From positions 372,001-436,000 of the forward strand of contig CP145418.1 in the NCBI GenBank assembly GCA_036867785.1: a DNA stretch of 64,000 nt, given 5' to 3'. The notes beneath the pieces were generated by a model, which saw only the letters and a list, made by a program, of their open reading frames with translations, was not told where the DNA came from and made no database searches. This stretch comes from Plasmodiophora brassicae (Eukaryota). This document shows, in pieces, positions 1 through 61,249 of the stretch (within the stretch, counting starts at the first letter, position 1; the number at the start of each line of letters is the position of its first letter). The position numbers and the translations under genes were made by a program.

Positions 1-84
1 CTCCCCCGAATCGAGGCCAACCCGTGCAAGCCAAGTCGTAAGACACAACAACAGCAGCAGCAACAGCACGCCTCGAGAGCTATC

Positions 85-528
85 ATGTATTCGCGTTGCA
101 TAAGCAACAACGCTGCCCTGGTCGCCAGGCACGGCGCCGCCCAGCGCCAGCAGAAGCTGTCAGGCGCCAGCGAATCGTCAGTGACCCGCAACGAGCGCCT
201 GTACAAGACGGAGATGTGCCGTCTTTGGGGCGAGAGCCGTTCCTGCCCGTACGGTGCCAAGTGCCAGTTCGCGCATGGCGAACAGGAACTTCGCCCGGTG
301 GAGCGCCACGCCAAGTTCAAGACGGTCCTGTGCAGGAAGTACCACGAGGACGGCGTGTGCCCGTTCGGGGCCCGGTGCGCGTTCGTCCATAAGGAGACCG
401 CAACGACGCCCCTGGTGATCCCGCTGGACACCGTCACGACGCTCAGCCCGCCGACCGCGGCGATGCCGACCCCGGTCGGGTTCCGACGTGCCATCACCCG
501 CGATTCGTTGTTCACTAAACTGTACTGA
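85..528 (+). CDS. Tandem CCCH zinc-finger protein (TTP/TIS11/ZFP36 family)
   Basis: Two C-x8-C-x5-C-x3-H fingers with YKTEMC and FKTVLC lead-ins. Confidence 0.93.
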   Translation: MYSRCISNNAALVARHGAAQRQQKLSGASESSVTRNERLYKTEMCRLWGESRSCPYGAKCQFAHGEQELRPVERHAKFKTVLCRKYHEDGVCPFGARCAFVHKETATTPLVIPLDTVTTLSPPTAAMPTPVGFRRAITRDSLFTKLY

Positions 529-21313: not shown

Positions 21314-23761
21314 TCACCAGTAATCGTTGCATGAGCAGTGTCCACAGGCAAAGTTATGATGGCGCGTCGCATCGCGTACGTAAACATGTCGGTCGTACAT
21401 GAGCGAGATACGCTTGATCGCCTGGTGACAAGTGTCGCATAGGCGTCCGTGCTTGAATAAGCGGATCGGCTCGCCATCAGGGACAAGGTCAAAAGCGTCC
21501 GCAATCGCACGTATAACGGAGTGGTGGGCGAAAGGCGGCTCGCTACTGGCCCTAACGGGACCCAGCGCAGAACGTCTGTTCAAGCGTTCAATCAGTCGAT
21601 CATGCTGAGCGGAACGAGATCGGGGAGAATCGGCCACAGCACGCTCAAACTGTACGTTACGATCTGCAAGGTGCAATATCGTTGCGTCCGGCAATGCACG
21701 CAGGCCCTTCGACGCCTTCTCCTCCTGCAGGCGGGAAACGTCCTCGAATCGGCCGGCGCTGTTGTATAGGTCCATCAACAGCGTGTACGCGGATGCGAGA
21801 TCACGCGAGTCCAATGCAAGAGCTCCGATGCTCGAGAATACGCGCTCTGCGCGATCCAGATCGTTATGCCTGCGGCAGGCAACAAGCATCGCCATCCAGG
21901 GTAGAACCCCATTCTCGGCAAAGTCGACAGCGACTCGCTCCGCTGCATCCAGATCACCAGTCCGGCCGTGAAGGTCGACTAAGGAGGCACGGTGCAACGA
22001 ACCCAGAGGTAAAGCTTTGAACTCAGACAGGAGGCATAGAGCGCGATCTCGGTCGCCGACATGGCTACATCCCATTAGCAGAGATGCAAGCGTCCGACCG
22101 GTTGCCGACAGGCCACACGACTTCATCTGCTCGAGCGCTTCCAGTGCATTGGCAAGCTTTCCATGCATGCAATACGCCTCGATGATGGCGTCGAACGTAT
22201 CGATATGACTCTGATCCGGAAGCGAACAACGGCCGTGGAATAAGCCCACTGCTGCATCGAGATACCCCGATTGGGAATATGCGGTGATGAACGAGCTGAC
22301 CGTTAAATCATCGCATAGCAAATCGTGCTGCTGGGCGTGGTCAAGCAGGACCCGCAGAGTTGAATGGTCGTGGCACCGTCCAGACGCCATAATGAGCGCC
22401 CTGAACGTTGGAGACTTGTTCATACTGGAATGTACTCCAGAGGCGCAAAAGAACAATCGTGAAGCATCGGCGATGTTGTCGCTGTTAGCAAGAGCGGATA
22501 TAAGACAAGAGTACGTCGCCACGATCGGAACCTGACCCGCCGCTTCCAGTTGGTCAACCATTGCGATAGCGTTTTGAAATTTGTCATGATGGGCATACGC
22601 TAACACCATCGCATGAAAGACCACAAGGTCGGGGTCCGAGACAGCGCGCCGCGCCTCAAAGACTGTCTTAGCAGCGTCGAGCTGGCCACAGTGGTCGTAG
22701 GCCGAGACGAAGGCGCTCACAATAAAATCGTTCAACGACAGCCATCCCTTGGCATGTGCATACTCGTGAAGCACGGCAATAGAGGAGGCATCCCGTTGCC
22801 GTCCGCAAGCAGAAACGAGAGTCGAGAACACGGGTGCGTCAATATGCACATTGTGGCTCGTCATTCTGAGGAACAGGGACATGGCCTGCGTTATGCGACC
22901 GGCTTTCGCCATCATGAAGAGAACATGAGTGTAGATCTGCCAGGACGGCGGCGTACCAATAGAATCCATGAGTTTCAGGGCGTTAACAGCCTGCTCGAAT
23001 CGGTGTTGTGCCAGCAATGCCGTCATCAGATTGGCGAACAACTGCTGGTTGTGCTGCGGCGCAATGACGTTCTGACGAAGCAGGTCGAACAGTTGCTCGG
23101 CAGTGTCGGCAGCTTGAGGGCATTGGGATTCGGCACAGCACACTGCAAATATGGACAAAAGTCGCTCACTGAACTCGACGCTGCTGTGGACGGCATCGGT
23201 GACCAGGAAGAGCGCCGACGATGGGCTTTTCGACAGCCTACAGATGTTGGCGACCCCGAAGATGACTTCGTGGGAGCGCAACCCGCACCTGGCGTACAGA
23301 TCGAGGGCCTGGCGTAGGAGAGGTGGGCTGGTTTTCTGACAAGCACCGAGGAAGGTACAGAACATCATATCACAAACGGGGACATCACGAGATACGGCCG
23401 CATGAAGCACGGAAGGCGCCTTGGAGGGAAAGTGCCGTTTGCAAAACGATAACATGGACTGGAAGAACGGCGACCGCAGTGGAATGCCACTATCAAGGAT
23501 GCGGTGGAACACCGACGTAGCATGCATTGGGTCGTTCGTCTCCTTCAGGATACGGATGGCCAGCTGCACTCTTGGCCGTCGGAAGAATGCATCAAGTCGG
23601 TGGGATGCAGAAGATCGCCTCCTCGGTTGCACCTGCGGATGCCTGGCAGGAGACGCTACCGCGCATTTCGATGCAGATGCGGAAAAGCCTGCAGCGTTGC
23701 TGCTGCAGTTGAATTGGCCCCTGAGTGCGACGACTGCGGTTTGACGAGCAAACACGAGCAT
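21314..23761 (-). CDS. Pentatricopeptide-repeat protein with C-terminal E/DYW-like deaminase domain; probable mitochondrial targeting
   Basis: About 815-aa intronless ORF with an Arg/Ser/Ala-rich N-terminus and PPR-like repeats. It ends PIRLFKHGRLCDTCH...VRDATRHHNFACGHCSCNDYW. Confidence 0.93.
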   Translation of the reverse strand: MLVFARQTAVVALRGQFNCSSNAAGFSASASKCAVASPARHPQVQPRRRSSASHRLDAFFRRPRVQLAIRILKETNDPMHATSVFHRILDSGIPLRSPFFQSMLSFCKRHFPSKAPSVLHAAVSRDVPVCDMMFCTFLGACQKTSPPLLRQALDLYARCGLRSHEVIFGVANICRLSKSPSSALFLVTDAVHSSVEFSERLLSIFAVCCAESQCPQAADTAEQLFDLLRQNVIAPQHNQQLFANLMTALLAQHRFEQAVNALKLMDSIGTPPSWQIYTHVLFMMAKAGRITQAMSLFLRMTSHNVHIDAPVFSTLVSACGRQRDASSIAVLHEYAHAKGWLSLNDFIVSAFVSAYDHCGQLDAAKTVFEARRAVSDPDLVVFHAMVLAYAHHDKFQNAIAMVDQLEAAGQVPIVATYSCLISALANSDNIADASRLFFCASGVHSSMNKSPTFRALIMASGRCHDHSTLRVLLDHAQQHDLLCDDLTVSSFITAYSQSGYLDAAVGLFHGRCSLPDQSHIDTFDAIIEAYCMHGKLANALEALEQMKSCGLSATGRTLASLLMGCSHVGDRDRALCLLSEFKALPLGSLHRASLVDLHGRTGDLDAAERVAVDFAENGVLPWMAMLVACRRHNDLDRAERVFSSIGALALDSRDLASAYTLLMDLYNSAGRFEDVSRLQEEKASKGLRALPDATILHLADRNVQFERAVADSPRSRSAQHDRLIERLNRRSALGPVRASSEPPFAHHSVIRAIADAFDLVPDGEPIRLFKHGRLCDTCHQAIKRISLMYDRHVYVRDATRHHNFACGHCSCNDYW

Positions 23762-24244
23762 CGACAACACCGCACATCCGCGCGCAATGTTGAAGGCGCT
23801 GCTGAAATCGGTATCGAGTCACTCACTCCGCAAACAATTATTTAGTTGAACAACCAAGGAACGCGGGAACTCGCAAGTCACGACACGCCTCTCTCCACAG
23901 TTCAAACGTTCGAAAAACGCGTCGCGGATAACCTGAGAGTTCTGATTGAAGCATCCGCTACAAGTTACCATCTACGGCGAAGGCAGCCTAGACAAAAGCG
24001 ATGCCGATGTTGTGCCATTGTCTCATTGATGGGATAATCGAGTTACATAGCGATCGCTTAGGTATGTAGGTAGGTCAACCCGCTCAACCGTAACGCAGTT
24101 TGGCACGGATTGCGCAAGCGTGCAGCCGCCGGGGTTGCTGGTGCGTGGTTCTAAAAGTCCGTGGAACGTTCCGTGGTGTTGCCATTGATCATCGATTTTG
24201 GTCGTTTGGCACGTCATTGCATATCGCGTTCAATCCGGGACATC

Positions 24245-29858: not shown

Positions 29859-32800
29859 ATGAAGGTCAAGGCGCGGTATCGGGAACGGGCGACGCCGGTA
29901 CCGGCCGATGCGGATCCCGTCCGCGTTGCCATGTCGCGCGCAGATATCCCTGTTGAAGAACTGGCACATCTCGCCAAGCAAGTGGCCGATCGGCCTCGAT
30001 GGCCGTACTTCGCGTCCGCGCCGTCGCTGCTCGATTGGGTCGATACGCTAGATCGCATTGATGATGTCATTGGAAATCCGCAAACGCAGTCTGTTCATCT
30101 GGTCCCCATTCTTGCCTTCCTACGCCAACTGATTGTTAATGTCGGCGACACTCGCGTATATAACTCTGCAGAGGTAATGTGGTTCGATTCTCTCATCACG
30201 TTGTTTGTTAATATCATGTCCAATTCAGCACCTGGTTGCCCTGCTGGAGCACACAGACCCAGGCGTAATCCTGGGGACACTGAACGTCGTTCGTGCTCTG
30301 GCTCAGTCAGGTCAAGCAGCTATCCGCCTGTCTCATCGGGCACAACCGCTTCTGAGGCCCAGGGTACACGCGCTCGCCACCCTGGTTGTCACGTCTGACG
30401 GCTATTCGATGCGGAATTTGGCCAAGTCAGCTGTGCCTGGTAAAGGCCCTGTGACAGAGCCGGATGTGTCTTCATCTACGGACGAGTTTATCGCACGGCA
30501 TCGCTCTGCAATTGCTTCAGGATCACCAGACGTTTGCCGACTCTATGTTCGCGTCGTTCTTAAGGCAGTGCAAGTGGCCATAGCGCTGCAGTCTCCAGCA
30601 CTTGCATCGACGTCATCGATTGCCCAGCAAATCCTTGGCCTGATCGAGAACTCGAACGATGATGCGGATGCGTCAACGGACGGTCTTGTCGTCGAAGCCT
30701 TGCGAACGCTTACTGAATTGTCAACTGTCCCCATGACGCGACGACGTTTGATTGAAGCCTCCGTATTTGACGAGGATGGCCTCATCATGAATGGGTTCCA
30801 TTCAGCCGTCGAGGCTGCTCGGCGTGGGTCGTCCATCGATCGTCTTAGCGCCTATCTGTCTCTTTTTCTTGAACTTGTATCCTCCGATTCTGGTGAAAGA
30901 GGAAGCGGTGCGAGTTCAACGATTCTCGGCCGCGCCATTGATGCTGACAGTCTGATCCGTTGTTTGTCGTCTCTCATGGAAGACGGATTCATGAACCTTA
31001 TTCCTGAAATATGTGCCCTACTCGCAACGCTCTTGATTGGAAGTAGCGCTTCTCGCGCAGCATTCCAAGAGCAGAATGTACTGGAGAAGGTTTTCAAGTG
31101 CCTGTCGTCCATTCTTTCAGCTCCCGAACCGGACGTGCATAATTCCATGCCAGCATTACAATCTTTGCTGCGAATCGTGACGATATCTGTCCAGCGAAGT
31201 CGGGTTGTGATTCCGCAGACAATAGTCAGTGATTCTGACTTCGTCCGAATCTCCATCTCACTGTGGAACTATGCACTATCGCCTGGCAGCGTTGACGCTC
31301 AAGCGTTATTGCTTTTCGCGACATCGTGCAATGTCGTGTCGCGATTCATTCAAAACCGCCCGCGCTCCCTTCCAGCTATGCATCGGGAGGGTTTGACTGC
31401 GGAGTATTTCAGACGGTTGCCAACCGCTCTTGAACTTTCCAGTCGCGATTATAGATCTGCCCATTTCGACACTGTTGTCAAAGTGTTCTTGGATTTGGTT
31501 AGGTCACTTGCGATCCATAGTTCTGGTTTAGCAGCTGTGCTTGCTGCCGACCCGATCCAACATGTCGTTCCGTTGCTGTCTCTCCCCATCCCGAACGGCA
31601 TCCTGGCCATAGGACGAAGTATCGAGGAATGGATGCGACATTATTCAGAGTTTGAAGAGCCTGTTTTGACGGCTGTCGTGACCTGGCTGAAAGGTTTACA
31701 TGATGACTTGAGTGACGATACTCCAATTGTCAACGGCTGCCAACTACTGAAATGCATTGTCCCTCGGCATGTTGCGAAATTCTGCGCCGTCAATGGTGCA
31801 ACTCAGCTGCTCCAGTTCGCCTCGAGTCCGTCGCAGAAGACACGTCTACGTATTCATGGTATCGGACGCGAAGGTCCTTTCCCTGACCTGTGCCCGCCTC
31901 TGTCACTCGGCGACGATGCTGGTCATCTGACACCAGCAGCGGATTCTCTTGCGGAGGTATACTCATGGCTTGCAGTTCAGCAGGCTAGACTCCCGATGGA
32001 TTCGCTTTTCGAACGCATTCAAAAGGCGACTGAAACTATTACGAAATCCTCTGGATTTTCAAATCCAAACTACCTGTGGCCTTTCGATTCTGAATCCGAT
32101 ACGTCTCCTTGCGACCGCGCTTTAGAGCAATGCGTCTCGATTGCGGCTCTGCATTTCTATTTATCCATCCTACTTCGTATCCTTCGCCGCACACCTACTT
32201 TCCAGTTACGCCAGTCGACGTTATCCTCCGTGTTTGCGTCGATTTCTCGGGTCGTCGCTCGCGTTGAGTGGGCTTTGGTCTGTATCCAGGGCAACGATAC
32301 GCTTGCCCGGTTTCGAGATATCCTGGTTCATTTTGACCGGACGTATCATTGTTTGCAATGCGCCTTTACGGAACGTGGCTCGGGCCGTTCGGCTGAGCAC
32401 GGTGTCTTTCTTCCGCTGTCGCTTCAGAATGCGGCGTACCTGCTTCAGTGGCGCCCGCCGTTCTATGCCCCTGTCAACCTCCCTGTCAACGACTTGTGGA
32501 AGTGTTTAATAGATTTCACTGCCCAGGCAGTCAGGGACGCGCGCCTGTCACTTCTGAAGCAAAGACTCTCTCCGTCTGGGTCGCGGATGGTTGTAAACTC
32601 TATCGTTGCGGAAGGCAAGACGTCGCTGAAACGCATTGTTGAGTTGTGGCGTTGGTCGATCTGCGCAGTGTGCAACCCACCATCATCTAGTGATCATCCT
32701 TGGGCTGGTGGACCCTCTGAACAGCACCGCATGAAGACTCGGAAAACGCATAGTTCTTCTGACGCTCCAACATCAGTGCCTGCATGGTCATGGCCTTTGA

Positions 32801-35800
32801 CTGGACCGATGCCTACTCTGGATTCGCTTCTGGTTGAGTTGGCTGCTTTTCTATCGGATGTTGCCCTACTCCCACCTTCCGCTTTCCAGGACACTCATCC
32901 CAATCTGGGGAAACTGTGTGCGGGGTCTTTCGACATGGTGTGGAATAACTTGTTATCCTTGCCATGTGGTGTTGTGGGATCTGCCCTTCGTGCATCTGCT
33001 GTTTTCCAAAACGCTCGGTCTGCTGCGTTATCGTCGGCTCCTTTGTCAACGTCCAGCACTGCTGCATTGAGTATGGAGCAAGATGATGACGAGGCCAATG
33101 ATGATGATGATGACGATGACGATGGCGATGGTGATGAGCAAGAAAATGACGCTGATGATGACGCAATGGCTGCGGTGGGAAACAATTCCCCTGCTGTGCC
33201 TACTGATGAACATCGAGATTTGCTACTGTCCCAGCTTCAGGAGATGGGATTCGAGCAGCGTCACGTCCTTTATGCCCTGAACACATCGGGATCCAGAGAC
33301 TTTAATCAGTTGATGGATTGGATGCTATTGCATCCTCCAGTTGACGCTGGGATTGTTAGCGCTGAGCAACCTGTATCACAAGCGGCGATATCTCAGTCTT
33401 CGGGGGCGCACCAGCCAGCAGAACCGTCAATGGCTGAACCGATGGGAAAATTCGCATCCGAAATTGAGTCTTGGTTTGGTCCTGTCTGCAATGTCGATGT
33501 TCTATCGCCGTCATATGCATGCACCGTGATTGGTACTCTTTTGAGTTGCGTTGAGGCGGAAGGAGAGAAAGACGACGTCGTACGCGAGGTGTCACAATAT
33601 TGTCTGCGAGTTAAGGATTCGGCTTTTACCGGCGCTCTGTTCGCAGCGGCAACCTCTCGACTTTCTTCTCCGCGTGTCTTAGACGTCATCCTTCGGGTCC
33701 TTACAGAATCCCCGAGTGATGGTGTTGCCATGATTTGTCGCAATTCTGATTTCACGGATGGTCTATTATTTTCTTGCAGGACTGGAACTTCCTCAAGTTT
33801 CCAGATTGTCGCCTGCCTTGCATCAGTTTGGGGAGAAGATGGACTTCGACCCGCGCTTCCACTTGAGACCCGGTTGGCCTTGACACGGGTTTGTCTCGAG
33901 CGCCTGCCCGAATCTGTTGGAGCTTTATGTGTTCTTGTCAGTCAAACCGAGGTTGCGCAAGAAGCACTTGGATGGAATGCCATTTCCTTGATCTTGAACA
34001 TGCAGGGGCCTGCTCTTCCTGAAAGCGACGCCGTTTTACTGCATCTGCTAGAAGATAACAGCCTGCTGCAGAAAACTTTGGTTCGTTCCATCCAAGCTCG
34101 CTCATCATTTGCGAATTTCTATGAGCGCTGTTCCAAACTGCTGTTTAGGGACGTATCCCGCTTGTTGAAATGGCTTCTGGAATCCGTTCAGGTCACCTCT
34201 TCAAACGGCAGTGTCATTTTGGCACCTCGAACAACTGACGACAAAGATAGCCTCGCCTTTCCGGACTCCACCTGGCCTGAGGGTCTCGGCCAAATCCTAG
34301 ATCATGTTACTACTGATCGGCGGCCAGGCCATTCTGACACTTTACGGTTGTTAGCTATTCTTCGATCTTTTCTTCGAGGGCAACGAGCTAGCTGCGACGT
34401 TATTGCTCGTTTTATCATCGAACGTGGGGTCCGCAATGGCGATGACGGCGATGTCGGGACCCGTTTCGTTGATATTGTTGTGCGCGATCTCCTGACAATT
34501 CGTAGCGCCTCGCTACGAGGACCCGACTGCAGCGCTGAAGCAGCAGCTGACCTTGCGAGGAGCCTGAGGAAGGCTGCGCAAGGGCTTCTCGTCGAACTTT
34601 CGTCGTCCTGCGAAGACGTTGCTAACGCTGTGTTTCAGTCTATTCTTCATGCCATGCGCCGTGAATCGGTACACAGTTCCAGTTGTGGTCGTGACCGTCG
34701 CGTCGCACGTTTTGCCTCTGCCCTTTCCGTGCTGCTTCGCGGTGACACCGCGCGAGCGAGTCTTATGATTCGGCAGGGTGTCATACCTGTCCTCGTGCAA
34801 GCGATGGAATCGTTGGATCTTTCTTCGCCTACCCTGTCTGAAAGCGTCGAAGGTGTCATCCGCGCGTTGGAGAACCTTGGCACTCTTGATCTGCAGCATC
34901 CACTCCCGAGAGATTTCTCTGACGAACCATCCGTGCCAGAAAGCGTTATAGCGCCCCAGACTGTGCCAATGGATGTCGATGTCGATGACAATGAGAGTGA
35001 CGTCAATGATGATCATCCAGTCGAGATGGAAGAAGAGGAGGAAGAGGATGAGGATGACAATCGCGATCAAGACAATGAGGAAGATGACGACGACGATGAG
35101 GAAGATGACGAGCATTCTCCGGACAACGAGGCCACTGCTGAGGATGTAGACGGTGGAAACGAAGAGGACCCTGCCGAACAAGACGATTCCGAGTACGACG
35201 AGGACGAGCTTGTCATCAACGACGCCGAAAACGATGAGGAAAATCGTGGCGCTCACTTGCGCGTACTCGATGCCTCTGCATCGGCGGCTCCTTTGCAAGC
35301 GCAGTCCCGAATGTTTTCCCAACACACCATTGAGCAGATTGCGGATGTCCTGCAGCAGAGTGGCGATATTGGCGGTGGTATGATCCAGGGCGTCCAGCAA
35401 GCAACCGACCGCCTGCGAAACATTCTTGACGAGTTCCAACGGAACATTGGCGCTGACTTTGCTGACTTTGGCGAGCTGGTCATTGCTGCACCTGCTGTAC
35501 CGAACCGCAACCGTCGTAACCTGTCTGTGGGCGGTGACGGCGTCGTTGTAAGAAGCTCGATTCAGCGCTCCCCATTCGACGAACTTCCATGGCTTAATCC
35601 AAGGCGTTCGAGTGGAGATACATGGCGCCGTGTTCCTCCAGCTCCTGTTGCACCGCATCCTGAGGCGCTTCGCACAGTCTTCGGACGACAGATTGGGGTT
35701 CCTTCTCGGACGACTGGTGAAACATCCAGCTGGTACTCTCGGATAGCAGCAAGCTCGGGCGATTCCATTAGATCGGCGGCTCTGTCTACGCTCCAGCAGC

Positions 35801-38800
35801 AGGCACAGGCACAGACGTCGTCTGAGCAGAACACTTCGGCCGACTCCGTCGTGCGAGTTGCTTCTGAAACGCTTCCAGTGGCGTCCGGATCTAACGTTTC
35901 TGACCCTTCGACAATCGAGGGTGCATTGGATGTCGAGCATCCTGAGGGTATCAGTGGGCATAATGGACAACCGCAACAGTCAGATTCTGGCGCTATGGAT
36001 GTCGACCTGCGTGAGGAGGAGCGCATTTCGTCTGATCAACCAGATGCAGAGCATTCGCAGCCTGAAGCAGATGTTCCGCCTGAACTGATTGAGCACTCAG
36101 CACTAGATCCGCCACAACCTGACCCAGTGGAATCCCAAGATGCACCACCGGCGGAGGCGCCCGTGGAGTCGACTGGTCTCACAGAAGACGAGCGTCAGGC
36201 GTTTCTGGCGGCTCTGCCACCTGAACTGCAAGCTGAAATCATGCTGCAAGATAGCAGGTTGCAGGCAGCTCACGCTAACCCATCTGAGATGAACCCTTCC
36301 ATATCTGCCGATATCGACAACGCATCGTTTATTGCTGCTCTACCCGACGATATTCGCGAAGAATTTCTTCTGTCACAAGATGACAACTTCCTAGCTGCAC
36401 TGCCTCCTGAATTGATGTCGGAGGCTATTCTGTTGCGTCAGCGTAATCTGTACTCTGAGCGTGACGATTTCCCGGCTCCGATACGTCGGCAACAAAATGT
36501 ATCAGCGCCCTCCCAAGGGACCTCGTCTTCGAACAATGCGGCGGAATCACAGGTGGCGACACCGCTTCTTCCCGTTCGACTGGTTGCGCCTCTTGTGAAG
36601 CTTTACACGATTCGCTCCTTCGATGCCGTTAAGTCCATCCACCGGCTTGTGCGTATCATGATTCGCTTCCAAGAGACGCGGGTTGCTCTGGTCGATTATT
36701 TGTTGAACGTGTGCTCGTCTCCGTCGTATACTCTGGCCCGTGCACTGCGAACTCTCAGGTTCATGTGCGTATCGTCACCTGAAGTTGTATCACATTTCCT
36801 TTCTGGTTTACCGGCTCCTCCGATTAACCGAGTCTTCGGGTTGCTCTCTGTTGCTCGACGTGAGCCGAGCGACTCTGTCTTAACCGGCTTAGTCGGTCTG
36901 GTCGAGGACGTTCTTTCTATTTTCAAAGGCGAAACACTGCCGGCAGACTTGTCGATCCCGGTACTTTCAGGTAACGCCATTGCCGATCTTGCCGCCATAA
37001 CCAACTTTCGTCAGTGTTCCGTCAAAGTTGCTGCCTCTTGCCAGGGGTTTGTCGGTGTTCTCTGCCTTGAGGAGTCGAACAAACGGCGTATTATTCGAGA
37101 GTTCGCGTCTGCAGTTCAGCGTGCTCGGCAGGCGGCGATGGCTCCTGGCGCCAAGTCTTGGGAAGTCTCGCATCAACATTCCCTTGTACTTCGCAATATT
37201 ACAATTTTGCAATCAGCCATTGCTGCATCGTCGTCAGCGCTGGACGAAGCCACCACATTGGTTATCGACACGTGCGTTGCCGATCTAAGCGCTCTATGGG
37301 AATGGCTCGACAATGCTCTGAAGGCGTTTGCGCCCACAAAGCCGTCTGTCAGCGAGCGAAGAATGAGCTCGAGTTCGACCAGCAATGTCGACAATGCCTC
37401 TCTTGAGCGTGCTTTGCAGTTCAAGGCCCTCATCGAAGCACGTTTCTTGCAGCAGCGGATCGCCTCCACGCCGGAGGCCTTTGTTGAGTTCATCTCTTTC
37501 TGCGATACGCACCGTCGTATTCTTAACTACATGTGTTCCCGATATCCCCGGCTCCTGTCCGGGTCGTTCCAAGCACTTTTGACGACGAAGGCGATCAAAG
37601 TGTTAGATTTCGACAACAAACGAAGGTATTTCAGGTCGCAGCTGGAGCAGCAGTTTGGGTCATTTCGATCTCGGTATCGAAGCGTGAAGTTACAGGTAGG
37701 AATAGTTTGGTTACTAGGGACATGCCCGTTTACATTTGCTTTTCAGATCCGTCGTGATCGGCTGTTCGAAGATTCATATCACCAGATCCGTGGCCAAACA
37801 CTCAATGAGCTCCGTTCCCACATGAGTGTGCAGTTTTATGGCGAAGAAGGCATGGACGCCGGTGGACTGACTCGGGAATGGTTCCACGTCATGTCGCACG
37901 AAATCTTCAACCCGAACTATCTCCTGTTCCGGACGGCGGCGAACTCGTCAGTCGTCTTCCAGCCTAACGAATTGTCCTTCTGGAATCCCGAGCACATCGA
38001 CTTCTTCAAATTCGTTGGGCGCTTTGTCGGCAAGGCGATCTACCAAGGTTGCTTGCTTGATGCCTACTTTACGCGTTCATTTTACAAACACATGCTGGGT
38101 GCGAAGCCGTCCTTCTCCGACCTGGAATCGATTGATCCCGATTTCTACAAATCGTTGAAGTGGATCCTGGAGAATCCGATCGACGGTGTCCTTGACCTAA
38201 CTTTCTCTGCCGAGACGCACGCGTTCGGCGAGAAGCGAACTGTCATGCTGAAACCGGAGGGCAGCACCATTCCCGTGACAGATGCCAACAAGGGCGAGTA
38301 CGTTCGTCTAATCACCGAGCTCCGGACGACGACCGAGATTCGCGCCCAGATCGATGCGTTCGTCGACGCGTTCCACGAGCTGATCCCGAAGGAGCTCATC
38401 AGCATCTTTAGTGACCATGAACTAGAGCTTCTGATCAGCGGCCTGCCGGCCATCGATATTGACGATCTGCGAGCCAACACCGAGTACCATGGTCTGTCCG
38501 AGTCGTCCGATGTCGTGCAGTGGTTCTGGAGCGCCCTGTCGACCTTCGACGGCGAGGAGAAGGCGCTGTTCATTCAGTTCGTAACTGGAACCAGTAAGGT
38601 ACCGATTGGCGGCTTCCGGTCTCTACAGGGGATGTCCGGCATCCAACGGTTCCAGATCCACAAAGCGTCTGGCGTCGACCGGCTGCCGTCGTCACACACG
38701 TGTTTCAATCAGCTCGATCTGCCCGATTATTCCTCGCCCGAATCGCTGGCAGAGAAGCTGCGCATCGCCATCCGAGAAGGAAGCACAGGGTTTGGTTTCG

Positions 38801-38805
38801 CTTGA
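29859..38805 (+). CDS. Giant HECT E3 ubiquitin ligase, HUWE1/Tom1/UPL1 type
   Basis: Helical N-terminus, UBA-like (LQEMGF), acidic region, FLAALPPEL repeats, and a HECT domain ending LPSSHTCFNQLDLP...GFGFA. Introns at 30174-30228 and probably 37696-37746. Confidence 0.96.
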
Positions 38806-55025: not shown

Positions 55026-57948
55026 ATGCCTGTAGCGATGATCCTGGTGCTGGTGTGGTGGTTCGCCCAGGTGAAAGGCGGGGTGGGATTGGATGGCCAG
55101 GGTGCCTGCACCGTCGGGGAACTGTACGCCCTGGTGGCATCGGAGTCGGGCACCATTCGGACATCCTTCACGTCCATCGAGGAAGTTGTCGCCATTATGC
55201 GCGATCAGTGCGACACGTACGACGGCAACGACTTTGGGGAACTCCAGACCCGAACACAGATCAATTCGGTCGGGCTGGAAGATGCCGACATCGGCGCATG
55301 CGAGTTCTGACCAGGCTGGCCAGCCCCTGGACACCGACCCGAGACGCCTGTCCGAGGCCTGGGTCAACACCTGGATGCTGAACCGGGCGATCAACGCGTC
55401 TTGTCTCTCAGAGTACGTACTCGGCAGGGGGTCTTCCTACGTGCAGGACAACGCCATCCCGGCGCGGCTCGTGTTTGAGTCCACGTCCTGTATCTACAAC
55501 CAATCGTCGAACATCAGCGACATCTGCCGTACTGACTACCCCGCCTGTCCCCCATACAGCCAGGTTGTCACCCATCCCATTCGGGTCTGCTTGCATTGTT
55601 CCTTCCTGCCCAGCGCACCGCCCAATACATACTCCCAGGTCTCAGATTGGAACGCGGTGCATGGGCCGACTTGCCCAAAGTTTTGCCTGGATCCGGTACG
55701 CTACGATAACCTGATCGACAACTGGATCATGTCGTTCACGAAGCCCATCGACCTGTTTGTCGACGACATGTAACCATGGGATTGCCCTACAGCGATCCGG
55801 ATATGACAGTGAGACGACAGGCTGAATTCGTCGTACTGCAGCATGGCGGTGGCGTTGTACTTCTGGACACCAGGGGGGACGTCACGGTACGCTCCATCGC
55901 TAGCGTCGTACAACGTGACGATGGCGGATGCCATCGGGTATTCATTCCCGTTGTTCTGGCTGGACACAAACACGCCGATCGACCAGGCGAATGGGATCCT
56001 GTACACGCGCCCGTACCAGGACCCGGTCACCCGCCACACGATGATCACGCTCATGCTCCCAAAGTACTGATTGCACACTGCTGGACGAAAGCGCCGTTGA
56101 TTGCTGCATCCCAGGTACCTTGCAGGTGGCCGCTTCATTGGCATGTTCTGTGCCGACATGCAGCTGCACCAGCTGACGCCCGTTCTGGCATCATTCTCGC
56201 CGACGACGTCAAGCATGTCGATAATCACGATCAACGGGTTCGTCATCGTCGCGTTACCGTCCGTGTTGAGCGCGTTGTTCTGCCCCGGCCCCAACTGCGA
56301 CGCCAACGGCGTCTACAATCTGGCCCTGGGCGGGCAGGTCGCCAAACTGTCCCAGAGCCCGCTCGACGACGTCCGCACCGCTTCCCGTCTGATCGAGTCG
56401 CAGGCGATCGCGACCGTGACGATCCGTGCGGTCGCGTACTACGCCGTCAGCGTCCCGGTGGCCGGCATGGACCAATGGGTGCTGACCACGTTGGTGCCCA
56501 GCCACGAGATCGATAGAGCTGCCGTATGGCAACTAACGACAACGGATGCTGTTCTTGTTCTCGACAGCACCAGCAACGTCGGCCAGCGTTTCCGGGCCCA
56601 TCTGGCCAACAAGGGCCTGCACAGCACGATGTGGGTCGCGACGGTCCAGGCAGGAACGACAGCGATCGCCTCCGTCAATGGCACACTACCCGCGGGGGAA
56701 TCCACAACCATCTCGTACGACCTGGTCGGGGTTCGTGACAGCCGTGCCGCGTTCCTAACGATCGACGTCGCCGGTGCCGCCCGGGTCGGACCGACCTGCT
56801 TCCCCCCGCTCCAGGTGAAGATCCCGATCGAGCCGCAGACCATCTACGAAACCTTTGTCATGGACAGGGCCGTTATCCTATTGGTGCTGTCCACCTACGC
56901 CATCACGATCCTGTTCCTGTCCATCTGTGCACACGTCGTATGGCGTTTCAGGACCTGCACGATGATGAAGGCTAGTTCGCCGCGGTTTCTGATGACAGCG
57001 ATCGCGGGGGCGTTCCTGTTTGCAACCGCCTCGCTCGCGTTCGCCGTTCTGCCGACTCCGGACGCAGCTGGGCTGATAGTCTGCCAGGCGCGATGGTGGA
57101 TGACCACCTTTGGATTCGTCACAACGTTCTCCCCTTTGTTTTTGAAGACGTACCGCATCCACAAGGTAACGCCGACAACCCGTCGAGGTGTCCACCTAAT
57201 GCGTCTGTACAGATCTTCACGATGGTGAACGTTGTTTCGATGACGAACGCGTACCTGTTCCGTCGGGTGCTCGCTCTCGAAGCCATATTCCTGACCCTGC
57301 TCATTGTCCAAACAGCGGCGCCCAGTTTGCGCTCTGTTCCGATCGAGTTGACCGCCAGCGATATTCCAGCGCATGTCGACAACGCCGTTACCGTTCTGCC
57401 ACAGTGCACGTCGAACATGATGATTGTGTCGGTCGTGCTGATATCCGGGTATGCATTGACCGCCTGGGGAGCCATTGTAGCGGTTAGCGTTGCACCGGGG
57501 TCGGAGTCGTTGCCCGGGTGTACTGACCTGGCCTCTGTAGTGGAACGCGAGAGATGCACCGTCCGATTTCAATGAATCGACACACGTCGCATTCTGCATC
57601 ATCTCGATTGCGGTCTACGCGATCGTGATGATTCCGCTTCAGATGTTCATGGACGGGTCGCCGAACCAGCTCGCCATCGTCCGTGGCGCCGGCATCAACG
57701 TCGGCATGTACGTCGGGTGAACGACGCGCTCGCTGACGACGCTCCGCTGATTCGCCCCATACAGCCTGCTGTCGATGGGCGTCCTGTTCCTGCCTAAAAT
57801 GGACAAGATTGTCAAAGGCGAGCACAGCGGCCGTCTGAACCAGCTCGGCAAGGACGCCACCACGCCCGACCGTACCGCGACGGCGAATGCTGCGCGCGTC
57901 GCTGTTCACATCCCACAAGACATCGCAGCGGCGAACGCGAAACAGTGA
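55026..57948 (+). CDS. Class C (GABA-B/7tm_3-like) GPCR with Cache-like extracellular domain, multi-exon
   Basis: Signal peptide; YTRPYQDP...FIGMFCAD Cache-like segment; MKASSPRFL, CQARWW..GF...LFLKTYRIHKIF, PSDFNES and LFLPK 7TM motifs. Confidence 0.85.
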
Positions 57949-58081
57949 CTGCACCGCAAAGAGCCATTGCCACTCTGTCCGTCCCCTGAAAGACGTCAGA
58001 AGTCAGAACTGATCTGGTGAGGTCGGTCTATTTACGGCAGTGGCGGGCGACTGGCGTCGGGCAGACAGGCAGTGTTCGGAC

Positions 58082-58999: not shown

Positions 59000-59590
59000 C
59001 TGAATGATGCATTGCTGTCGTTCTTGGCCGTCAGCCCTTACTTGCCCGTGCCACAGCTCCGCTAATACACGATCCTCACGATTCTGGGATCCACGTAGCA
59101 GGGCCTGACCATAGGTAGTCTTGCCAGGGTGGTTCTTGGCTTTCGGCGTTTGCGTACTCGTGCCACATCCACGCTGACGCGTGATCCTCACGATTCGGGG
59201 CTTCACGTAACACGCCCTGGCCATAGTCTGGCCAGGTTGGTTCCTGGTCGTCGGCGCTTACTTGTTCGTGCCACAGACCCGCCGATGCACGATCCTCACC
59301 ATACGGGGCTTCACGTGGCAGGGCCTGACCATCGTCTGGCCAGGGTGATTCTTGGCTGTCGGCGTTTACGTGCTCCTGCCACGCTCCCGCTAATGCATGA
59401 TCCTCACGATTCTGGGCTTCACGTAACACGCCCTGATCGTAGTCTGGTCGTGGTCGTCGCCCTGTTCGTCGCGGTCGGCGCCTTCGTTGCCTTATACCGC
59501 TCTGGAACGATCGCGAAATGTCGGCGTTTGCTTGCCTGTGCAACAGGTTCGCATTCTGGGCTTCACGTAGCAGGGCCTGACAGTAGTCTG
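59000..59590 (-). repeat. 108-bp (36-aa) coding tandem repeat, about 5 units
   Basis: The anchor motif recurs at 59089, 59201, 59309, 59417 and 59561 (spacings 112, 108, 108, 144). Confidence 0.9.
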
Positions 59591-60995
59591 GCAAGGTTCG
59601 CAAATCGATCAGCTCGTACATCAAGATGTATGCGTCGCGGTACACATGCGTCTCGCACGCTTCGTCAACGTCTTCGACTGGTGTCACGGCAGGATCGGCC
59701 ATGTCGTCGAACGAGAACCAATTTCCGTCCGCGTATCTAACGAACGTGATATAATGCCCGGATGTCAACGATCCCCCCAAGTGGCACACCGCTGATTTGA
59801 GCACCAGCATGTACCGGCAATCGTCGACGAATGCCGACGCGTCAATCGTAAATCTGGAGGCGTCGATATAGCAAGGAACTTCGACTCGTGCCCGGTTCTT
59901 GGAACGATCCCACGAATATCGTTTCAGGATAATCGGGATCATCATCGGCGCCTGCTCATCCCATTCCGCGTTTCTGTCTTGACAGATGAAACGATGGACC
60001 TGTTCGTCGGTAAGCACCCTTTCAGGGATCAGGCTTGACGTTGACAGCGCCGTGACATCAACGTCTTCGTGCTCATGCTGCCGTCGTACACGGACGGTGC
60101 CGCCGAAGAGATGCTCGAAAAGGATCTCAGTCAGGGACGAGGTTCCTGTCACTGGGGCCTCGAGGCAACGATCGTGAGACATACGGGCGTCGACGCTGCT
60201 ATCGGCATCGGCGCCATGGTGCAGGGTTTCCGCCATAGCGAGGAACGGGGCATCCAAGGTGTCCAGCAGCCAGCCGAAGAACTCAAAGGCGTCCATCTGC
60301 AGATCGATCTCGTCTGCTGTAAGAAACCTGCAGTCAACGAGCAACAGGCGGAACTCGTGGACGATGGCGCGAGGGACGGAAACGCCAGCGCGAATGATGT
60401 TAACAATCACGAGAAGCAGACGGCGTAGTCGATCACGAGACGAATCGGTCGGGATATGACGCGTTAGCAAAGAATCGTAAGAGGTGTCGGCAGCGAACAT
60501 TGAGAACAGGACGGCGTTTAAATAGCAGGAATTTGTGTCGTGCTGTATGCCTTGCAGCTTGGCGATCTGCGGATCGGCAAGAATACCGAATTCCTCCATC
60601 TGGAACGCGCTCAGAAGATGGATACCAAGGCCGGCATCGCCATCGGATAGAGCCACGATCTTGCGAGCTCGGCTAAGTGACAAGCAGCTGTTCGGATCGT
60701 TCATCTTCGACAAGACCTGCGCGGTGGCCACATCATTCACCTCCGACGTCTCATCAATCCGAAGCTCGCTCAAAAGGTCCGGAGTCGATTGCTCCATCGC
60801 TCCGGCGACGTCGCCGATACACGCCGTCCGAAGCTCGCTCAAAAGGTCCGGAGTCGATTGCTCCATCGCTCCGGCGACGTCGCCGATACACGCCGTCCGA
60901 AGCTCGCTCAAAAGGTCCAGAGTCGATTGCTCCATCGCTCCGGCGACGTCGCCGATACACGCCGATATTACAGCACATAACCCGAAGATGTACAT
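59076..60995 (-). CDS. CYLD-like ubiquitin-specific protease (C19) with predicted signal peptide and tandem repeats
   Basis: Cys box GIQHDTNSCYLNAVLFSMFA, QMDAFEF and His box SGHYITFVRY..WFSFDDMAD; hydrophobic N-terminus MYIFGLCAVISAC; intronless. Confidence 0.88.
   Translation of the reverse strand: MYIFGLCAVISACIGDVAGAMEQSTLDLLSELRTACIGDVAGAMEQSTPDLLSELRTACIGDVAGAMEQSTPDLLSELRIDETSEVNDVATAQVLSKMNDPNSCLSLSRARKIVALSDGDAGLGIHLLSAFQMEEFGILADPQIAKLQGIQHDTNSCYLNAVLFSMFAADTSYDSLLTRHIPTDSSRDRLRRLLLVIVNIIRAGVSVPRAIVHEFRLLLVDCRFLTADEIDLQMDAFEFFGWLLDTLDAPFLAMAETLHHGADADSSVDARMSHDRCLEAPVTGTSSLTEILFEHLFGGTVRVRRQHEHEDVDVTALSTSSLIPERVLTDEQVHRFICQDRNAEWDEQAPMMIPIILKRYSWDRSKNRARVEVPCYIDASRFTIDASAFVDDCRYMLVLKSAVCHLGGSLTSGHYITFVRYADGNWFSFDDMADPAVTPVEDVDEACETHVYRDAYILMYELIDLRTLPDYCQALLREAQNANLLHRQANADISRSFQSGIRQRRRRPRRTGRRPRPDYDQGVLREAQNREDHALAGAWQEHVNADSQESPWPDDGQALPREAPYGEDRASAGLWHEQVSADDQEPTWPDYGQGVLREAPNREDHASAWMWHEYANAESQEPPWQDYLWSGPATWIPES
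60759..60965 (-). repeat. 69-bp (23-aa) coding tandem repeat, three copies
   Basis: Units start at 60759, 60828 and 60897 and encode ACIGDVAGAMEQST[L/P]DLLSELRT. Confidence 0.97.
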
Positions 60996-61249
60996 GGCCG
61001 CCCTGAAACGCGTTCCCAGACGCCTGATTGATCTGCGTGTTGTACCTTCCCAACGGCGATGGTTACCCAACCGTGCGTAATCCTCTGTGTCCTCGACTTC
61101 CAGCTCCCACGAACGCCGTGCGGACTGCGGGCGTGTCCGTCAATCCTTAGGGCGGCCATCCTATACCTAGTCGGCACAGTGTCTTGAATCAGGACTCATG
61201 ACCGCGGCCGCAATTCGGGACAGCCGGAGGGTAAAAAAACTCCGTCGGT

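Follow-up and report, generated by a model that had tools for sequence, protein, structure and literature searches.

A class C receptor gene of Plasmodiophora brassicae with a predicted bacterial-like double Cache ectodomain in place of the Venus flytrap

A stretch of 64,000 nucleotides from Plasmodiophora brassicae (contig CP145418.1, positions 372,001 to 436,000 of the forward strand; hereafter the window) contains, at positions 55026-57948 of the + strand, the gene PBRA_002250, whose eight exons encode a protein of 849 aa. The gene is intact and conserved and codes for a G-protein coupled receptor (GPCR) of class C, the GABA-B/glutamate type. We put at about three in four the probability that its product is a class C GPCR with a double Cache (dCache) sensor instead of a Venus flytrap, a Cys-rich insert, an Ig-like stalk and a putative small-molecule pocket, and that sensor and membrane bundle were joined by an independent fusion. 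From the N-terminus the order of the parts is a probable signal peptide, a dCache fold of ~415 residues interrupted by a Cys-rich insert of ~160 residues, the Ig-like stalk and a complete 7tm_3 bundle. P. brassicae is an uncultivable crop pathogen, the agent of clubroot, and its GPCR signalling is, according to the review PMC9180986, the topic of Bi et al. 2019. In the literature we found no ligand named for any P. brassicae receptor, and the name PBRA_002250 was not found in main texts (supplementary tables lying outside the scope).

Standard Pfam misses the Cache part of the receptor, and profile and fold comparison were therefore needed to place it. Residue numbers are those of the database model P0002 (856 aa). 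In a permissive Pfam scan, sub-threshold MCP-like_PDC_1 and dCache_1 matches of P0002 fall at residues 274-344, and such sub-threshold Pfam matches converge with weak PDB matches to chemoreceptors and histidine kinases on residues 257-395; the relatives P0010 and P0158 reach 23.6-23.7 bits with dCache_1. A family profile searched against a collection of 5.8 billion sequences made a single addition to the receptor's own cluster, the bacterial hybrid histidine kinase P0157 (E 1.1e-12), whose own dCache_1 at 185-348 is above the Pfam cut-off. By hhalign, family residues 227-434 lie on P0157 160-357 (97.4%, E 1.3e-11, 198 columns). We also ran an ectodomain-only profile, made from a 5-sequence alignment, by hmmsearch against all PDB sequences at E up to 1. 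The 30 matches comprised 25 prokaryotic chemoreceptor, kinase or cyclase Cache domains, one CACHD1 (weak, E 0.006), three HYDIN and one bystin, while periplasmic-binding proteins and chains of GPR158 or GPR179 were absent; at the top of the Cache matches were Mlp24 (1.2e-8), a uracil chemoreceptor (4e-7), PctA (2.4e-5) and Mlp37 (2.9e-5). The ESM Atlas, consulted for leads only, returned Cache/PDC families in 9 of 10 feature rows and the name dCache_1 in 6 of 10 structure rows.

An AlphaFold2 model was built from the six-sequence family alignment (mean predicted local distance difference test score, pLDDT, 51.9; 65-81 for the helix at 26-60 and ~60-82 for residues 280-540). Compared with the PDB by Foldseek, its ectodomain retrieved PctC, Mlp24, PscC, mmHK1S-Z2, TlpQ, CtaA and other dCache domains (E 3e-5 to 5e-4), and its membrane part retrieved class C receptors. 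With VIA-align, all 50 best rows were prokaryotic sensor ectodomains, in which 210-246 residues of the model range 21..438 superposed on targets of 225-290 residues (Z 12.8-16.2, root-mean-square deviation (rmsd) ~3.5-4 Å); two of these rows, 9a69_B and 9a65_B, are integrative chemoreceptor models whose rmsd of 98-99 Å is meaningless. The best match was the tandem Cache of PscC (6mni_A, Z 16.2, rmsd 3.6 Å, 228 of 258 residues). Since the superposition extends over nearly the whole target, the receptor ectodomain is, as modelled, a complete double Cache replacing the Venus flytrap, with two PDC modules, one distal and one proximal to the membrane, behind the N-terminal helix (26-60) (P0002 ~21-435; 55098..56520 on the + strand, introns included). 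A Cache-like sensor and a 7tm_3-type bundle in one gene is what a sequence-only reading of this stretch had proposed, and both the profiles and the fold agree with it. The three ectodomain peptides on which that reading was founded, ILYTRPYQDPVTRHTMITLMLP, YLAGGRFIGMFCADMQLHQL and VPVAGMDQWVLTTLVP, are all present in the + strand translation, the first as the end of the frame 55813-56070 and the other two inside the largest open frame, 56101-57228 (375 aa, + strand). The latter frame proceeds without a stop from YLAGGRFIGMF to VPVAGMDQWVLTTLVP, a beta-rich stretch and three hydrophobic helices, and so encodes the membrane-proximal PDC module, stalk and helices 1-3 in one piece; sensor and bundle thus share not only a gene but, in part, an exon.

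The Cys-rich insert (~160 residues, P0002 ~61-218; 55218..55769, + strand) comes after the first helix, ahead of the strands with which the distal module begins. Ten Cys are found between residues 24 and 198, seven of which are kept in at least four of the six family members; the conserved Cys of the insert are 104, 133, 145, 152, 194 and 198 (in 4-6 of 6 members). The insert matched no Pfam family at E up to 10 and, at pLDDT <50, has no confident fold. A Cys-rich region had been described as preceding the Cache-like part; the region is real, but its position is inside the fold, behind an N-terminal helix that superposes on the first dCache helix. Upstream of that helix, the hydrophobic N-terminus MPVAMILVLVWWFAQVKG (55026..55079, + strand), read off the sequence, is probably a signal peptide.

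A domain of ~110 residues separates the dCache fold from the first membrane helix (P0002 436-547; 56521..56856, + strand). Folded alone, it is predicted to form an Ig-like beta-sandwich of eight strands (pLDDT 76.3) that closes with the invariant pair Cys528-Phe529, and the model thereby gives a shape to the beta-rich spacer noticed earlier in front of the membrane part. Fold comparison returned macroglobulin-type, transglutaminase and other Ig-like sandwiches at Z 10-11, Foldseek returned GH3 C-terminal, MSP and PapD domains (E 4e-4 to 2e-3), and in the ectodomain profile search the stalk drew the weak HYDIN matches (E 0.008-0.9). Assignment of the stalk to one family was rejected, the HYDIN/ASH, MSP, PapD and macroglobulin matches all being generic Ig-like sandwiches.

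The class C seven-helix bundle (P0002 553-807; 56872..57798 on the + strand, introns included) matches Pfam 7tm_3 (PF00003) with E 6.4e-31 and 108.4 bits (cut-off 33.5) at profile positions 7-251 of 251, which establishes the 7tm_3-type bundle seen by the sequence-only reading over the full profile length. Hydrophobic windows and model helices span residues 547-812, as required for seven helices. When exons were scanned singly, 7tm_3 appeared in two of seven pieces (E 1e-13 and 7.4e-6) and the other five had no match. The solved structures nearest to P0002 as a single sequence, GABA-B2 (1.2e-12), GABA-B1, mGluR7 and GPR158 (5e-5), align with residues 550-820 only; with the family profile the values are 4.1e-25 for GABA-B2, 8e-19 for mGluR4 and 3e-16 for GPR158. 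Of the Cys pair of the class C bundle, which is located at the top of helix 3 and in extracellular loop 2 and would form a disulfide, Cys623 is found in all six members and Cys715 in five. The bundle also contains the strings KTYRIHKIF (644), FNE (750) and FLPK (804), which we take to be class C motifs. GABA-B subunits, the best solved relatives of the bundle, share the strings KTxR(I/V)HxIF, FNE and FxPK, whereas they carry a Venus flytrap and have neither a Cache nor an Ig-like stalk. FxPKxx is given as a class C string in a section of PMC11437087.

The putative pocket core is in the distal module and consists of Y284 (codon 56014-56016) and D314 (codon 56155-56157), that is, 56014..56157 on the + strand with the intron 56064-56114 between the two codons. 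Both residues are invariant in two alignments (6/6 and 5/5 members), they are the most conserved positions of the ectodomain, and the ectodomain profile aligns them with the PY...D of Mlp24 and PctA. Profile positions 260-328 run ungapped along 138-206 of the PctA chain 9koo_A, which brings the Tyr to 144 and the Asp to 173 if the chain index equals the native numbering. In PctA, Y144 and D173 hold the ligand by its amino group, and Y121, R126 and W128 the carboxylate (passages of PMC8915833); in amine sensors (dCache_1AM) the Asp and aromatic positions are common, without the Arg (passages of PMC10589655). Y284 and D314 correspond to the C-terminal half of the dCache_1AA motif (Y144 and D173 of PctA). 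The N-terminal half, YxxxxRxW[YF], was found in none of the six proteins searched for it (P0002, P0159, P0010, P0123, P0130 and P0157), in a region so poorly aligned and modelled that a shifted equivalent is possible. Of the dCache_1AM motif, to which an aromatic cage and an upstream insertion bearing an Arg/Asp pair belong, the shared Asp and one aromatic residue can be placed, and the remaining positions are within 236-276, where pLDDT is <50. Because Y284 and D314 are invariant while the carboxylate-binding Arg/Tyr half is missing, we infer, short of proof, that the ligand would carry an amino group and not necessarily a carboxylate, and that an amine-type ligand would be likelier than a free amino acid.

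In the mechanism that we propose, a small molecule would bind to the membrane-distal Cache module, in a pocket lined by Tyr284 and Asp314, the presumed counterparts of the residues with which bacterial dCache_1 sensors grip amino acids and amines by their amino group. The resulting conformational change would be passed on by a rigid Ig-like stalk to a dimeric class C bundle, and the bundle would signal to a heterotrimeric G protein.

Among known Cache-bearing proteins, the receptor is most like the prokaryotic dCache_1 sensors (PctA/B/C, Mlp24, Mlp37, PscC, Tlp3 and mmHK1S-Z2), with which it shares the fold over nearly the whole domain and a profile-detectable PY...D core (E 1.2e-8 to 1e-4); among full sequences, the bacterial dCache_1 histidine kinase P0157 is the ectodomain's best relative. 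It differs from them in the ~160-residue Cys-rich insert, in a signal peptide where they have a first membrane helix, in the Ig-like domain before the helix, in its eukaryotic seven-transmembrane (7TM) output, in having no match to YxxxxRxWY and in scoring below the Pfam cut-off. Animals also have class C receptors of this general kind. GPR158/mGlyR and GPR179 possess one Cache module and an EGF-like Cys-rich linker (sections of PMC11437087), so the premise of the sequence-only reading that animal class C GPCRs use a Venus flytrap does not hold for them, and what stands of that reading is a Cache-type sensor on a class C bundle, encoded by one gene. In GPR158 and GPR179 (PDB 7ewl, 7she), as here, a Cache-type sensor replaces the Venus flytrap on 7tm_3, but the P. 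brassicae receptor has two Cache modules and an Ig-like stalk instead of one module and an EGF-like linker. GPR158_179_EC (PF22572) has no match in P0002 (Pfam, E up to 10), and hhalign of the family ectodomain profile with the GPR158-like protein P0066 gave 28.5% over 50 columns, compared with 97.4% for the bacterial P0157. Two further proteins with Cache and 7tm_3 were not alignable with the family ectodomain (P0022, 0.9%; P0052, 0.3%). We infer, no more firmly because the 7TM tree described below is weak, that the joining of Cache and class C bundle was an event separate from that in the animal GPR158/GPR179 line.

Outside animals, a receptor with Cache_1 (PF02743) and 7tm_3 (PF00003), TP_7830, is reported from the diatom Thalassiosira pseudonana in a section of Krishnan et al. 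2012 (PMC3251606). It has the same combination at the level of Pfam and comes from a member of the SAR supergroup, like P. brassicae; unlike the receptor described here, its Cache reaches the Pfam threshold, a comparison made by description and not by sequence. The combination of Cache and class C bundle is not unprecedented, having been found before in animals and in a diatom. A 2025 survey of animal relatives found no Cache-bearing GPCR in the non-metazoans that it sampled (PMC12716839), and according to passages of a 2022 survey every eukaryotic dCache_1 protein found carries a VWA domain inserted in one dCache_1 (PMC8915833). The alpha2-delta and CACHD1 proteins are eukaryotic dCache_1 proteins as well, but the receptor lacks the VWA insertion (VWA and VWA_N have no match in P0002, Pfam, E up to 10) and is not a channel subunit. 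With a VWA-less, bacterial-like dCache on a GPCR, the receptor family is outside both survey descriptions. New here is the union of a double, bacterial-like, VWA-less Cache with an Ig-like stalk and a Cys-rich insert; the family that shows it is small and extends to a chytrid and uncultured eukaryotes.

The extent of this family was examined with several searches. Word-index homologue searches with the largest exon and with the ectodomain (20-545) recovered the P. brassicae cluster only. An exhaustive phmmer search recovered 2073 proteins at E up to 0.001, and nearly all of the best 150 aligned wholly or mainly in the 7TM part. Among the matches listed, the ectodomain is common, beyond the own cluster P0001, to P0010, P0123, P0130 and P0030. 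P0010 is a metagenome protein of 1017 aa aligned over 83-819, P0123 is a chytrid protein from Blyttiomyces sp., and P0030 represents part of PBRA_008959 (P0159), a paralogue in P. brassicae itself. The full-length architecture is kept in P0123, in the metagenome proteins P0010/P0158 and in P0159, the last of which aligns with P0002 over its full length at 30% identity (831 columns, E 1e-103). Another metagenome protein, P0113, has stalk and 7tm_3 without the Cache part. In the metagenome protein P0130 (967 aa) the same Cache and stalk are found on a single-pass protein whose cytoplasmic part has neither 7tm_3 nor any Pfam match; the ectodomain can therefore be regarded as a portable module. 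The cytoplasmic strings FFSYQW...VWLDILSIPQ of P0130 presumably resemble HET/TIR-like death-fold-associated domains.

The domain scan covered 61 (14 + 47) of the 150 listed 7TM relatives, 54 candidates of at least 450 aa being left out. In four of the 61, 7tm_3 occurs with a Cache-type family above threshold: MCP-like_PDC_1 in P0013 and P0022 (protist/metagenome) and GPR158_179_EC, at 96-97 bits, in P0045 and P0066 (animal, GPR158-like). The remaining scanned relatives have LRR, ANF, Peripla_BP, SBP_bac_1, Bmp, 5'-nucleotidase or LamG domains, or none that was recognised. Given the diatom, animal and protist/metagenome cases, the combination of Cache and 7tm_3 is a recurrent one. A metagenome protein of 1504 aa, P0052, displays an unusual combination in its own right, in that an alpha2-delta-like ectodomain (VWA_N at 49.7 bits, dCache_1 below threshold) precedes a strong 7tm_3. 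For the 7TM part, a quick maximum-likelihood tree was computed with 61 rows (one of 62 labelled proteins was omitted for its short envelope). In it P0002 pairs with P0159 (SH-aLRT 95) and the pair is joined by P0009 (96), all within a starred set of 11 to which P0010 and receptors of the ANF and PDC types also belong; both GPR158-like rows fall in a separate starred clade. By its 7TM part, P0009 (PBRA_009229, 346 aa) is the nearest relative of the two P. brassicae receptors with a Cache; it has next to no ectodomain and is a bare class C bundle or else a truncated model.

Several points weigh against the account given so far, those concerning RNA being presented with the transcripts below. Of the dCache_1 and 7tm_3 pair that the sequence-only reading expected from a domain library, only 7tm_3 is above its cut-off: P0002 scores 16.9 bits with dCache_1 (PF02743; cut-off 45, E 0.005) and 18.1 bits with MCP-like_PDC_1 (cut-off 27, E 0.0037). 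The family alignment is small, with 5-6 sequences, and the statement that the ectodomain is closest to bacterial Cache domains derives from solved structures and a single bacterial sequence. In the model, pLDDT is <50 at 59-143, 154-225 and 236-276, and since the model is poor and one presumed pocket wall is among these segments, the geometry of the pocket is not established. In prokaryotic dCache_1 proteins the membrane helix follows directly, 'always located C terminally' in the words of a passage of PMC8915833; the predicted Ig-like domain between Cache and helix 1 would require a signal transfer for which there is no solved model. In the 7TM tree, half of the inner branches (29 of 58) are open, resolution is poor deep down, and P0010 and P0123 are on long branches away from P0002. 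As to the ligand, the missing half of the amino-acid motif also belongs here, and a Tyr and an Asp at 284 and 314 do not by themselves define a ligand.

These last points are also those from which the strongest alternative derives, namely that the Cache fold is real but serves for dimerisation, or as a platform for a protein or a glycan, or that the receptor is ligand-free; we consider this rather unlikely. The Cache of GPR179 binds a protein partner, pikachurin, and forms a dimer interface (sections of PMC11437087), so that a Cache fold is no proof of a small-molecule ligand. The carboxylate-binding half of the motif is absent from all six proteins checked, a large Cys-rich insert without a confident fold is set on the distal module, and P0130 bears the ectodomain on a single-pass protein, its output not being tied to G proteins. 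The residues of the amino-group contact, Y284 and D314, being the most conserved positions of the ectodomain, speak against it, as do the close structural and profile matches, all of them small-molecule chemoreceptor domains.

The double Cache receptor presupposes a gene that is read as a whole, and we therefore describe its model in full. Three public models exist for the locus, SPQ98844.1 (659 aa), CEP01985.1/PBRA_002250 (856 aa, P0002) and XXQ35960.1 (838 aa, P0003), whose sole name in each case is 'G-protein coupled receptors family 3 profile domain-containing protein'; the one truncated, through read-through at 57166, is the 659-aa SPQ98844.1. Our best model has exons 1-4 at 55026-55268, 55324-55584, 55639-55769 and 55821-56063 and exons 5-8 at 56115-57165, 57213-57482, 57541-57707 and 57765-57948, all on the + strand. 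This composite amounts to 2550 nt and 849 codons with no internal stop and seven GT..AG introns of 47-58 nt; on the + strand it begins with ATG at 55026 and ends with TGA at 57946-57948. A second ATG at 55038, from which the database models start, would give 845 aa. The 849-aa product is P0003 extended by four residues at the N-terminus and by seven at the exon 3/4 joint.

Four splice choices (in 55269-55820 and 57700-57765) differ between the public models and our first hand model. The 55-nt first intron retains D80, R85 and E88, invariant in the alignment of the relatives, and the donor at 57708 yields NVGILLSMG, identical in the paralogue P0159; both were chosen because P0159 and other members conserve the resulting residues. 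The first hand model, with an 88-nt first intron and a donor at 57717, was dropped, residue conservation favouring the alternatives. Introns 55585-55638 (54 nt) and 55770-55820 are backed by RNA contigs that join 55584 to 55639 and 55769 to 55821, and the former coincides with a gap in the alignment of the paralogue P0159.

The RNA evidence consists of contigs from four runs of four studies, whose RNA nature was guessed and in which splice joints show that cDNA is present; the contig pieces listed for the receptor locus have no differing letters. Sense-strand joints (55490-55559, 55585-55638 and 55770-55820) were found in one of the four runs and in the 5' half only, among the matches listed, and among the same matches no contig joins the + strand introns 55269-55323, 56064-56114, 57166-57212, 57483-57540 or 57708-57764. 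The 70-nt joint 55490-55559 occurs in a single run and disrupts the conserved frame; it was treated as a non-productive splice. On the - strand, contig splice joints define a spliced antisense transcript over exons 4-8 (55965..57985), with GT..AG introns at 56616-56688, 56844-56898, 57081-57153, 57205-57254, 57334-57391 and 57463-57526. These six joints read CT..AC on the + strand and cut through exons 5-7; four were present in all four runs, one in three and one in two. The antisense contigs extend from 57985 to at least 55965 and so overlie the 3' half of the receptor gene. That this RNA is coding was rejected, since after splicing it has no coherent long frame (the best, of 255 aa, is Arg-rich) and the two longest unspliced frames of the - strand match no Pfam family. 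Its 5' end is in the short gap before a downstream + strand MORN-repeat gene (58592-58966 matches MORN), and a divergent promoter common to the antisense RNA and the MORN-repeat gene is therefore possible.

From these data one could argue that the gene is not used as one receptor, its parts belonging to separate transcripts or the locus acting as an antisense template with the sense message silenced in the sampled stages. The frequency of the minus-strand joints over the 3' half and the restriction of sense joints to 55490-55820 in one run, one of them breaking the frame, speak for this view. We nevertheless think it very unlikely: the proximal Cache, the stalk and helices 1-3 are in one exon and one frame, all eight exons are open and conserved over the full length in the 30%-identical paralogue, the antisense RNA has no coherent frame, and the contigs neither rank sense against antisense nor prove that a transcript is absent.

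That the ectodomain is instead a Venus-flytrap or periplasmic-binding fold diverged past recognition, on an otherwise ordinary class C GPCR, is hardly conceivable: the 7TM part is indeed nearest to GABA-B and close 7TM relatives often have ANF_receptor or Peripla_BP, but ANF_receptor, Peripla_BP and SBP have no match in P0002 (Pfam, E up to 10), and a periplasmic-binding fold, the outcome that the sequence-only reading itself had set against a Cache, appeared in none of the Pfam, PDB profile (0 of 30 matches) and structural searches, the 50 best structural rows being all Cache-type.

A more specific version of the double Cache receptor can be imagined, although we hold it unlikely as a whole. 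A bacterial-type, VWA-less double Cache would have been captured by a class C GPCR in zoosporic eukaryotes (plasmodiophorids, a chytrid and uncultured relatives), separately from the animal GPR158 line, and would act in the swimming stage as an amine chemoreceptor, for a host-root or soil amine, with its expression gated by the antisense RNA from a promoter shared with the MORN-repeat gene.

For the double Cache receptor in general, the recognisable, predicted ligand pocket makes a concrete target for ligand screening, and the ectodomain should be expressible alone. For receptor evolution, it represents a second and apparently independent case in which a class C bundle acquired a Cache sensor. 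Current family libraries overlook the Cache domain of the receptor, and the public names mention a family 3 GPCR only.

Other genes of the window include, at 21314-23818 on the - strand, an 834-aa frame with PPR (pentatricopeptide) repeats and a terminal DYW-type nucleic-acid deaminase domain (E 2.3e-15), the architecture of a plant-type RNA-editing factor in a rhizarian. At 30178-38805 on the + strand there is an uninterrupted frame of 2875 aa with UBM and UBA-like regions and a terminal HECT ubiquitin-ligase domain, unusually long and intron-free in an intron-rich genome. Finally, a frame for a ubiquitin C-terminal hydrolase (UCH) is found at 59076-61139 on the - strand; its N-terminal part contains three copies of a ~24-aa unit (ACIGDVAGAMEQST.DLLSELRT) and its C-terminal part further peptide repeats.

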